Assembly (NCBI GenBank): GCA_963722385.1
Contig: CAVRKK010000001.1
Span: 160,001-224,000, forward strand
From: an uncultured bacterium
Lineage (GTDB): Bacteria > Babelota > Babeliae > Babelales > Babelaceae
Length of the DNA: 64,000 bases
Direction: 5' to 3'
Made by a program: the position numbers and the translations under genes
Notes under the pieces: model-generated
The model's database searches: none
The model's input: the letters and a program-made list of their open reading frames with translations, nothing else
Told to the model about the DNA's origin: nothing
Part shown: positions 20,733 through 21,106 of the stretch, in pieces
Position numbering within the stretch: position 1 is the stretch's first letter
Layout of the letters: every line of letters starts with the position of its first letter

Positions 20733-21106
20733 CAAATCGCCTGCGCGGCTGGCGGCTAAGGGACATCCCTTAGCAATCCCCAAAGCGTTATGCTTAATGC
20801 TTATAAGCTTGGTGTGTGTAGTTATCGTACGCCAAAGCGTACGATAACTTACGCCATTTATCATGTACGCTGCGCTCCATGATAAAAATTTAATATCGCT
20901 TTCTATTTTCTGTCAGGAAAATTGCGGTAGCTCTAAGCATACGCCACGCATGGTTAGAGCATTCACAGAAAAATAAAGACTAACATAGAGAGCAAGAAAT
21001 AAAATCAATGGGTGCAGGGCCGCCGCCCTGCTGCCCGCCGCATAGGCGCGCCCGCTGCGTAAGCGTTCCCGTCGTAGCCTTAGCAAAGTCAGCCGCATAG
21101 GCGCAC
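20733..21106 (+). repeat. Multi-hairpin intergenic repeat, copy A
   Basis: Colinear with 56684-57030 and with the reverse complements of 23794-24218 and 63884-64000; string of stem-loops. Confidence 0.9.

Follow-up and report, generated by a model that had tools for sequence, protein, structure and literature searches.

A dispersed multi-hairpin element with inverted two-hairpin ends in a Babelota genome, and the search for what moves it

What is the hairpin-rich element that begins near position 20,733 of this DNA, and how did it come to be repeated? The window, meaning the whole 64,000-nt stretch that was analysed, belongs to a 1.6 Mb genome with a GC content of 43%. The initial annotation described four copies (A to D) of a non-coding element built from an ordered series of stems, and took it for a structured RNA or a non-autonomous mobile element. 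The copies and the ordered stems are all in the sequence where they were said to be, and so is the double compensatory change, gcTCtaa/ttaGAgc in A versus gcCAtaa/ttaTGgc in C. Two stems of copy A need correcting: helix 4 is attttct-gtca-ggaaaat, with one G.T pair, rather than attttcc-gtca-ggaaaat, and the mini-hairpin is cgcc-gcata-ggcg rather than cgac-gcgga-gtcg. The coordinates given for the copies do contain the element, but they also take in add-on modules. The annotation overlooked that a single structured unit makes up both ends, in inverted orientation.

Copy A lies on the plus strand with its core at 20735..21065. A left end unit (20738-20774) is followed by helix 2 (20820-20849), helix 3 (20858-20885), helix 4 (20905-20922), helix 5 (20930-20960), an A-rich spacer (20961-21009), the right end hairpin (21010-21031) and two mini-hairpins (21036-21048 and 21053-21065). 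The add-on modules 3' of it (21066..21160) include a small REP-like hairpin (21078-21090) and, from 21109, a tail. Copy C is on the same strand (core 56702..57015) and has perfect 20-nt terminal inverted repeats (56702-56721 and 56996-57015), which are imperfect in other copies. Inside them are helix 1 (56722-56744), helix 2 (56784-56813, with one T.C mismatch), helix 3 (56821-56848), helix 4 (56855-56872), helix 5 (56880-56910), the spacer (56911-56956), the right end hairpin (56957-56978) and a single mini-hairpin (56983-56995). A run of GAATT-like pentamers (56684..56701) marks its left boundary and is found at several other copies too. The extra tail beyond the right end is common to A (21109-21160) and C (57061-57120), and in C it overlaps the final codons and stop of an EamA-family gene (57064-58011, minus strand).

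The other two copies are on the minus strand. In copy B (core 23841..24205) the left end is broken by a 26-nt hairpin insert (24165-24190), and then come helix 1 (24126-24148), helix 2 (24053-24082), helix 3 (24019-24045), helix 4 (23983-24000), helix 5 (23945-23975), the right end hairpin (23875-23896) and mini-hairpins at 23858-23870 and 23841-23853. The window holds the right end of copy D (63900..64000), with its hairpin (63970-63991), two mini-hairpins (63953-63965 and 63936-63948) and a REP-like module (63914-63926); the complete copy runs past the window edge and sits between rny and ymdB. The rest of the window is rich in ankyrin and propeller proteins. It also has an Erythromycin-esterase-family gene at 50757-52154 (Pfam PF05139, E 6e-124) adjoining phosphoribosyltransferase genes.

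The annotation proposed a genome-wide count, and this changes the picture of what the element is. A blastn search with three copies finds 48 loci, and our catalogue lists 46 right ends, 42 of them from a pattern search and 4 entered manually. The six-stem interior of the annotation, which we call type I, accompanies 24 of these, a type II interior 10, and two further types 2 and 1; nine are right halves only. One end type is common to all four interiors, and helix 4, helix 5, the spacer and the right end are common to most copies. The six-stem interior is not the conserved unit it was thought to be but one of several exchangeable interiors between inverted end units. What the copies share is a two-hairpin end unit of about 45 nt, which occurs in inverted orientation on either side of hairpin cargo and an A-rich spacer of about 49 nt. 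The right end reads RRGTGCAGR-loop-YCTGC and, after a linker of 4 nt, has between one and three mini-hairpins whose loop is GCRNA (GCGTA, GCGGA, GCATA, GCACA and GCGCA are the variants). The palindrome lacks a fixed 5' GTAG foot; that tetranucleotide turns up only among the loop variants of the mini-hairpin. Reverse-complementing the right-end unit gives the left end, apart from a first hairpin that is a variant, so each strand has one unit close to its 3' terminus. Ends occur nested and in tandem multiples, and small REP-like modules are inserted within and beside many copies.

The spacer had been called unconserved. Its sequence is indeed variable, with a mean pairwise difference of 0.62 against 0.15-0.22 elsewhere in the element, but it is not wholly free: it is 46% A and constrained in length, with a median of 49 nt over 40 parsed copies and 42-66 nt in 38 of them. 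The two long spacers, 112 and 117 nt, have had a small hairpin inserted. We considered whether the spacer is a guide or captured DNA and rejected the idea: a 16-mer recurs elsewhere for 5 of 46 spacers, two of these recurring within a fragment of another element and the others being single A-rich words. We also rejected a hammerhead-like candidate in the type II interior, CTGATGAG, since type IV does not conserve it and Rfam gives no match for it. At C1:88790-88890 a helix 4-helix 5-spacer block stands without an end unit, which suggests that this block can exist apart from the ends. About 230 bp from it is an IS1202-like element (a 428-aa gene, 89158-90444) with its own ends and an 18-bp flanking direct repeat. 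At C2:439084-443190 a type I left half and right half are separated by roughly 4 kb that contains an IS3-like fragment and a 928-aa gene; the halves overlap in helix 2, so this is not a clean insertion.

Do the stems covary, as the annotation claimed from two copies? Copy C folds with z = -12.2 on the plus strand and -11.3 on the minus strand, and 0 of 100 shuffles fold as well. Across 15 of the 24 type I copies, 16 of 63 named interior pairs have changed on both sides while 97.6% of cells pair. Shuffles give 6.4 such pairs and none of 500 reaches 16, although the 15 aligned copies are related, which inflates the counts, so this figure is not a probability; slid controls give 0-2. Covariation is therefore present in the interior as a whole, but helix 2 (13 pairs) and helix 3 (8 pairs) have no double change among the 15. 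One position of helix 2 is mismatched in 7 of these copies, and one position of helix 5 is mostly T.G or G.G. The interior is lineage-specific. None of its 34 metagenome matches is real, so they add no sequences for R-scape-type covariation. The end unit can be followed further: an alignment of 23 sequences, drawn from several phyla, has double changes at 5 of 11 pairs with 98.8% paired, and there are 20 double-changed cells against 5.3 in shuffles.

The copies are insertions. The gap between rny and ymdB is about 476 nt here, with copy D in it, and 4 nt in the same-genus genome, and the site is empty in all five relatives compared, a check that the annotation had asked for. No excision or strain-level presence and absence was seen in the contigs of four DNA runs, where no joint removes a whole copy. 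Compared with shuffled flank pairs, 32 copies have no surplus of direct repeats on either side (mean 3.0 versus 2.9, with 253 of 1000 shuffles as high), a comparison weakened by add-on modules that blur the outer boundaries. By simple ORF calls the copies are intergenic, with 4 of 46 overlapping short, spurious-looking ORFs, and they favour gaps between convergent genes (15 of 46 versus 106 of 591 background gaps, p = 0.019). The replichore bias of 30:16 is not significant (p = 0.054). Within the element, distances between 5' halves and between 3' halves are uncorrelated (rho -0.07), and one right-end variant is paired with both type I and type II interiors; from these we conclude that halves recombine. 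Copies C and D differ by 0.7% in the 5' part and by 64% in the spacer, and both ends of copy C carry identical private changes.

Where else is it found? An exact form of the end pattern is found in 3 of the 261 genomes searched in the phylum; reversed as a control, the pattern matches none of them. With a covariance model, the end unit has 54 matches in this genome and 34 and 59 in two relatives, the first of them from the same genus. Elsewhere in the phylum there are six weak matches, each the only one in its genome, which are remnants of the first hairpin or due to chance. Interiors differ again in the two related carriers. In the same-genus genome two adjacent hairpins and an A-rich spacer stand in the same layout, in unrelated sequence. 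A third genome of the phylum (G052; loci L307, L303 and L287) has elements made of recursively nested hairpins in this style, up to four in a row at one end. Outside the phylum the model finds at least 150 matches in one Binatus genome, at least 150 and 148 in two Clostridia, and 23 and 46 in two Planctomycetota. The top scores in these five carriers are partly by construction, since the training sequences come mostly from the scored genomes and four or five of the five supplied some. Among GTDB representatives the end pattern is in at least 127 stretches, and the 80 matches listed are Binatota or 'delta proteobacterium' MAGs, Clostridia, Planctomycetota, one Acidiferrales and one unassigned proteobacterium. 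Inverted doublets in Binatota and Planctomycetota have inner parts of 58-129 nt (58-127 nt in Binatota), and those of Binatota show the same left/right asymmetry as in this genome. The shared structural detail leads us to infer that the end unit is of common descent across phyla; convergence of GC-rich hairpins would be the alternative. In the literature, of which most subscription papers were outside our reach, we found no published description of this repeat.

If the copies are insertions, was there an enzyme that made them? None of the 44 window proteins scanned is a mobiliser, as the annotation had said. It had also suggested looking for copies adjoining HUH/RAYT, GIY-YIG or RT genes, but searches of the carrier genomes for Y1_Tnp, GIY-YIG, reverse transcriptase, IS110 and IS91/Y2 turned up no specifically flanked gene. 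Among the 98 Y1 transposase loci listed (8 in carriers, plus 90 in the families of three carrier genomes, whose members are not necessarily repeat carriers), in assemblies that are incomplete, none is flanked by the end unit; the best score there is 16 bits versus about 40-68 for true ends. The incomplete assemblies of the same-genus genome, for all its 34 end-unit matches, and of three of the five other carriers have no Y1 match. Where Y1 genes are intact in this genome, they are IS200-like and bounded by ends of their own, which are unrelated hairpins, and no end is shared with a host IS200/IS605 element. Within these loci and incomplete assemblies, the result counts against membership in the REP-RAYT systems.

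Other routes to an enzyme lead to the same place. No inspected copy in this genome encloses an enzyme gene, and ORFs enclosed by inverted end pairs are ordinary genes as judged from their translations. No ORF family recurs across phyla in the 30 largest clusters (1363 ORFs around at least 127 pattern loci). A TnpB-like gene lies 600 bp from one copy with another gene between. A link to GIY-YIG genes was tried and rejected: the motif is near four such loci in Clostridia and one in Binatus, in genomes holding from 148 to at least 150 end-unit copies, but three of these are UvrC or UvrC-like genes and the remaining two are one GIY-YIG-NUDIX-like gene with the same upstream gene in both genomes. 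When the 46 copies were searched by blastn against the genome, the 30 bins outside the catalogued loci proved on inspection to be element fragments, tRNAs or other flanking repeats, and no autonomous IS sharing the end unit was among them.

The genome has mobile DNA of other kinds. By their N-termini, read by eye, there are two IscB-like ORFs (C1:291690-292889 and C2:1160226-1161509) and two TnpB-like ORFs (C2:87434-88417 and C2:1260354-1261337), all unlinked to the element. A LAGLIDADG-like ORF at C2:974566-975036 is within an apparent 23S rRNA gene and is likely part of an intron or intervening sequence. A separate motif of about 25 nt, probably the end of another insertion sequence, is repeated around C2:443000 and in at least seven other places. 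Integrated regions at C2:655614-659289, which adjoins tRNA genes, and C2:50368-55402 encode, from their translations, a Rep-like protein, an addiction-module-like gene pair and a serine-recombinase-like gene.

We believe this is probably a non-autonomous DNA element that behaves like a REPIN or BIME: its ends would be recognised in folded form on single strands, and an enzyme acting in trans would mobilise it. The annotation's view of a structured, dispersed, non-autonomous insertion survives, with covarying stems, an empty site, no Rfam match and no mobiliser in the window, but not its six-stem interior as the unit. The enzyme would read, on each strand, the folded end made of the GCAGG..CCTGC hairpin, the 4-nt linker and the 4-bp mini-hairpin with its GCRNA loop, and would cut and rejoin it, possibly where replication forks pass. 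Interiors may be shuffled, and terminal mini-hairpins multiplied, by recombination or gene conversion among the copies, and the block of helix 4, helix 5 and A-rich spacer may be kept because it helps copying or insertion. The copies would likely be selfish DNA spread as folded single strands. Against this reading, no cognate enzyme was found in the families searched in the carrier genomes, a fixed GTAG foot is lacking, the four DNA runs gave no sign of excision, and the replichore bias is slight. It also counts against it that template switching can produce double changes in a DNA palindrome with no selection involved, according to the available text of PMC7202029.

Could the interior instead be a functional structured RNA, or the element move by retrotransposition through RNA from the A/C strand? 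We think this unlikely. The strong folding and covariation would fit, as would a spacer that is A-rich on one strand, a 3' core for which RNA parameters favour folding of the top strand in 35 of 46 copies, and 20 G.T against 4 A.C in helix 5. However, DNA parameters give a like bias (32 of 46), the copies are not independent, and the ends are strand-symmetric. Whole elements of the other interior types fold about equally on both strands, with the opposite strand ahead in 5 of 7 with DNA parameters and 6 of 7 with RNA parameters. Because of this near equality, and because most of the helix 5 excess comes from one inherited position, the evidence points only weakly to an RNA. The annotation's remark that no Rfam family fits is borne out, with no match in the window and only a neighbouring tRNA from 18 element loci at gathering and E-value thresholds. 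The sole reverse transcriptase match in this genome is a 124-aa fragment without an end unit, and two carrier relatives have none. An element of 300-500 nt with terminal inverted repeats, perfect over 20 nt in copy C, in a genome with many IS remnants also calls to mind a classical MITE, whose repeats a DDE transposase would bind as double-stranded DNA. We consider that improbable as well. No target duplication was detected at the 32 copies compared, the end sequences change in paired fashion, which points to a reading of structure over sequence, and the ends are multiplied and nested. Nor is any of the 30 extra blastn bins an IS end matching the end unit, and the IS1202-like element near one remnant has different ends.

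Perhaps there is no dedicated mobiliser at all, and the hairpins owe both their spread and their perfection to host replication slippage, template switching and gene conversion, with covariation as a mutational by-product. The negative enzyme searches, the mosaic halves, the private changes common to both ends of copy C, and the pentamer runs and tandem mini-hairpins that resemble slippage products all suit this idea. We nevertheless give it little credence: a complete two-ended copy stands at a site that is 4 nt long in the same-genus genome, the end unit is conserved across phyla, and template switching would tend to erase the persistent mismatches in helix 2 (7 of 15 copies) and helix 5. 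Even less probable, in our opinion, is that a single-strand origin of a plasmid or phage left the copies behind as remnants. Motifs of 220-350 nt with several hairpins are proposed as ssDNA structures in the portion of PMC5737381 available to us, and the same-genus genome keeps its two hairpins and A-rich spacer despite a different sequence. But a plasmid and phage search gave no significant match (best E 0.3), one viral contig matched the end pattern and is a Mu-like terminase fragment, and a second pattern matched none. Rfam is again silent, and the inspected integrated region with Rep-like and serine-recombinase-like genes has no copy of the element.

How does the REPIN/BIME-like reading fare against known systems, as far as the available parts of the cited papers describe them? 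REPINs are inverted doublets with compensatory changes and a length-critical spacer (PMC3116915), mobilised by RAYT/TnpA-REP (PMC3116915, PMC8266576). The likeness extends to two inverted palindromic end units around a spacer, extragenic placement in many copies, compensatory changes, a spacer constrained in length, nested and tandem arrangement, loops specific to the strand and mismatches that are conserved (PMC3116915, PMC8266576). Unlike REPINs, the element has two hairpins per end without a fixed GTAG foot (PMC8266576, PMC6006769), an interior of 200-500 nt with several independent hairpins in at least four versions, and hosts outside the Proteobacteria, and no flanked Y1 transposase was found among the 98 loci (PMC8266576, PMC6006769). 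It resembles E. coli BIMEs as modular mosaics of palindromes and linkers downstream of genes, and CGTC-type REPs, which are likewise reported without a dedicated transposase, but it lacks a GTAG or CGTC tag (PMC3733652). The TIRYT-end motif GGGGWSAS is seen in some Binatota hairpin loops only, not in the ends of this genome (PMC3733652).

Other repeats of known genomes are similar in part, again judging from the available text. The bcr1 repeat of the Bacillus cereus group and BOX/NIME are dispersed, keep a multi-stem fold through compensatory changes and have at best a loosely assigned mobiliser (PMC3184786). bcr1 is about 155 bp, is transcribed and has 5-bp direct repeats; in the present element the flanks of 32 copies yielded no direct repeats, and the end unit is shared by several phyla (PMC3184786). 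ARRPOF, GEBRO and PAGEV are alike in size, multi-hairpin layout and proposed ssDNA action, but they are plasmid-borne while this element is chromosomal and multi-copy (PMC5737381). A cmscan against Rfam 15 gives no match here.

Without an enzyme or a function this family remains one more of a familiar class. What is new is the cross-phylum end unit together with the enzyme-negative result. It is conceivable, though we consider it doubtful, that the end unit marks an undescribed superfamily spanning phyla, of RAYT-independent elements structured as ssDNA that use an unrecognised enzyme or host machinery and can carry interchangeable structured cargo, which in this lineage would include the conserved two-hairpin and A-rich spacer block as the element's own priming or loading site. 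How REP-like repeats spread without a RAYT is stated as an open question for the CGTC repeats in the available text of PMC3733652. A defined end unit of 49 positions, present in at least four phyla and patchy within a phylum, makes presence/absence screens for the mobiliser possible. For the host lineage, the family is a source of recombination and of hairpins at the ends of genes.
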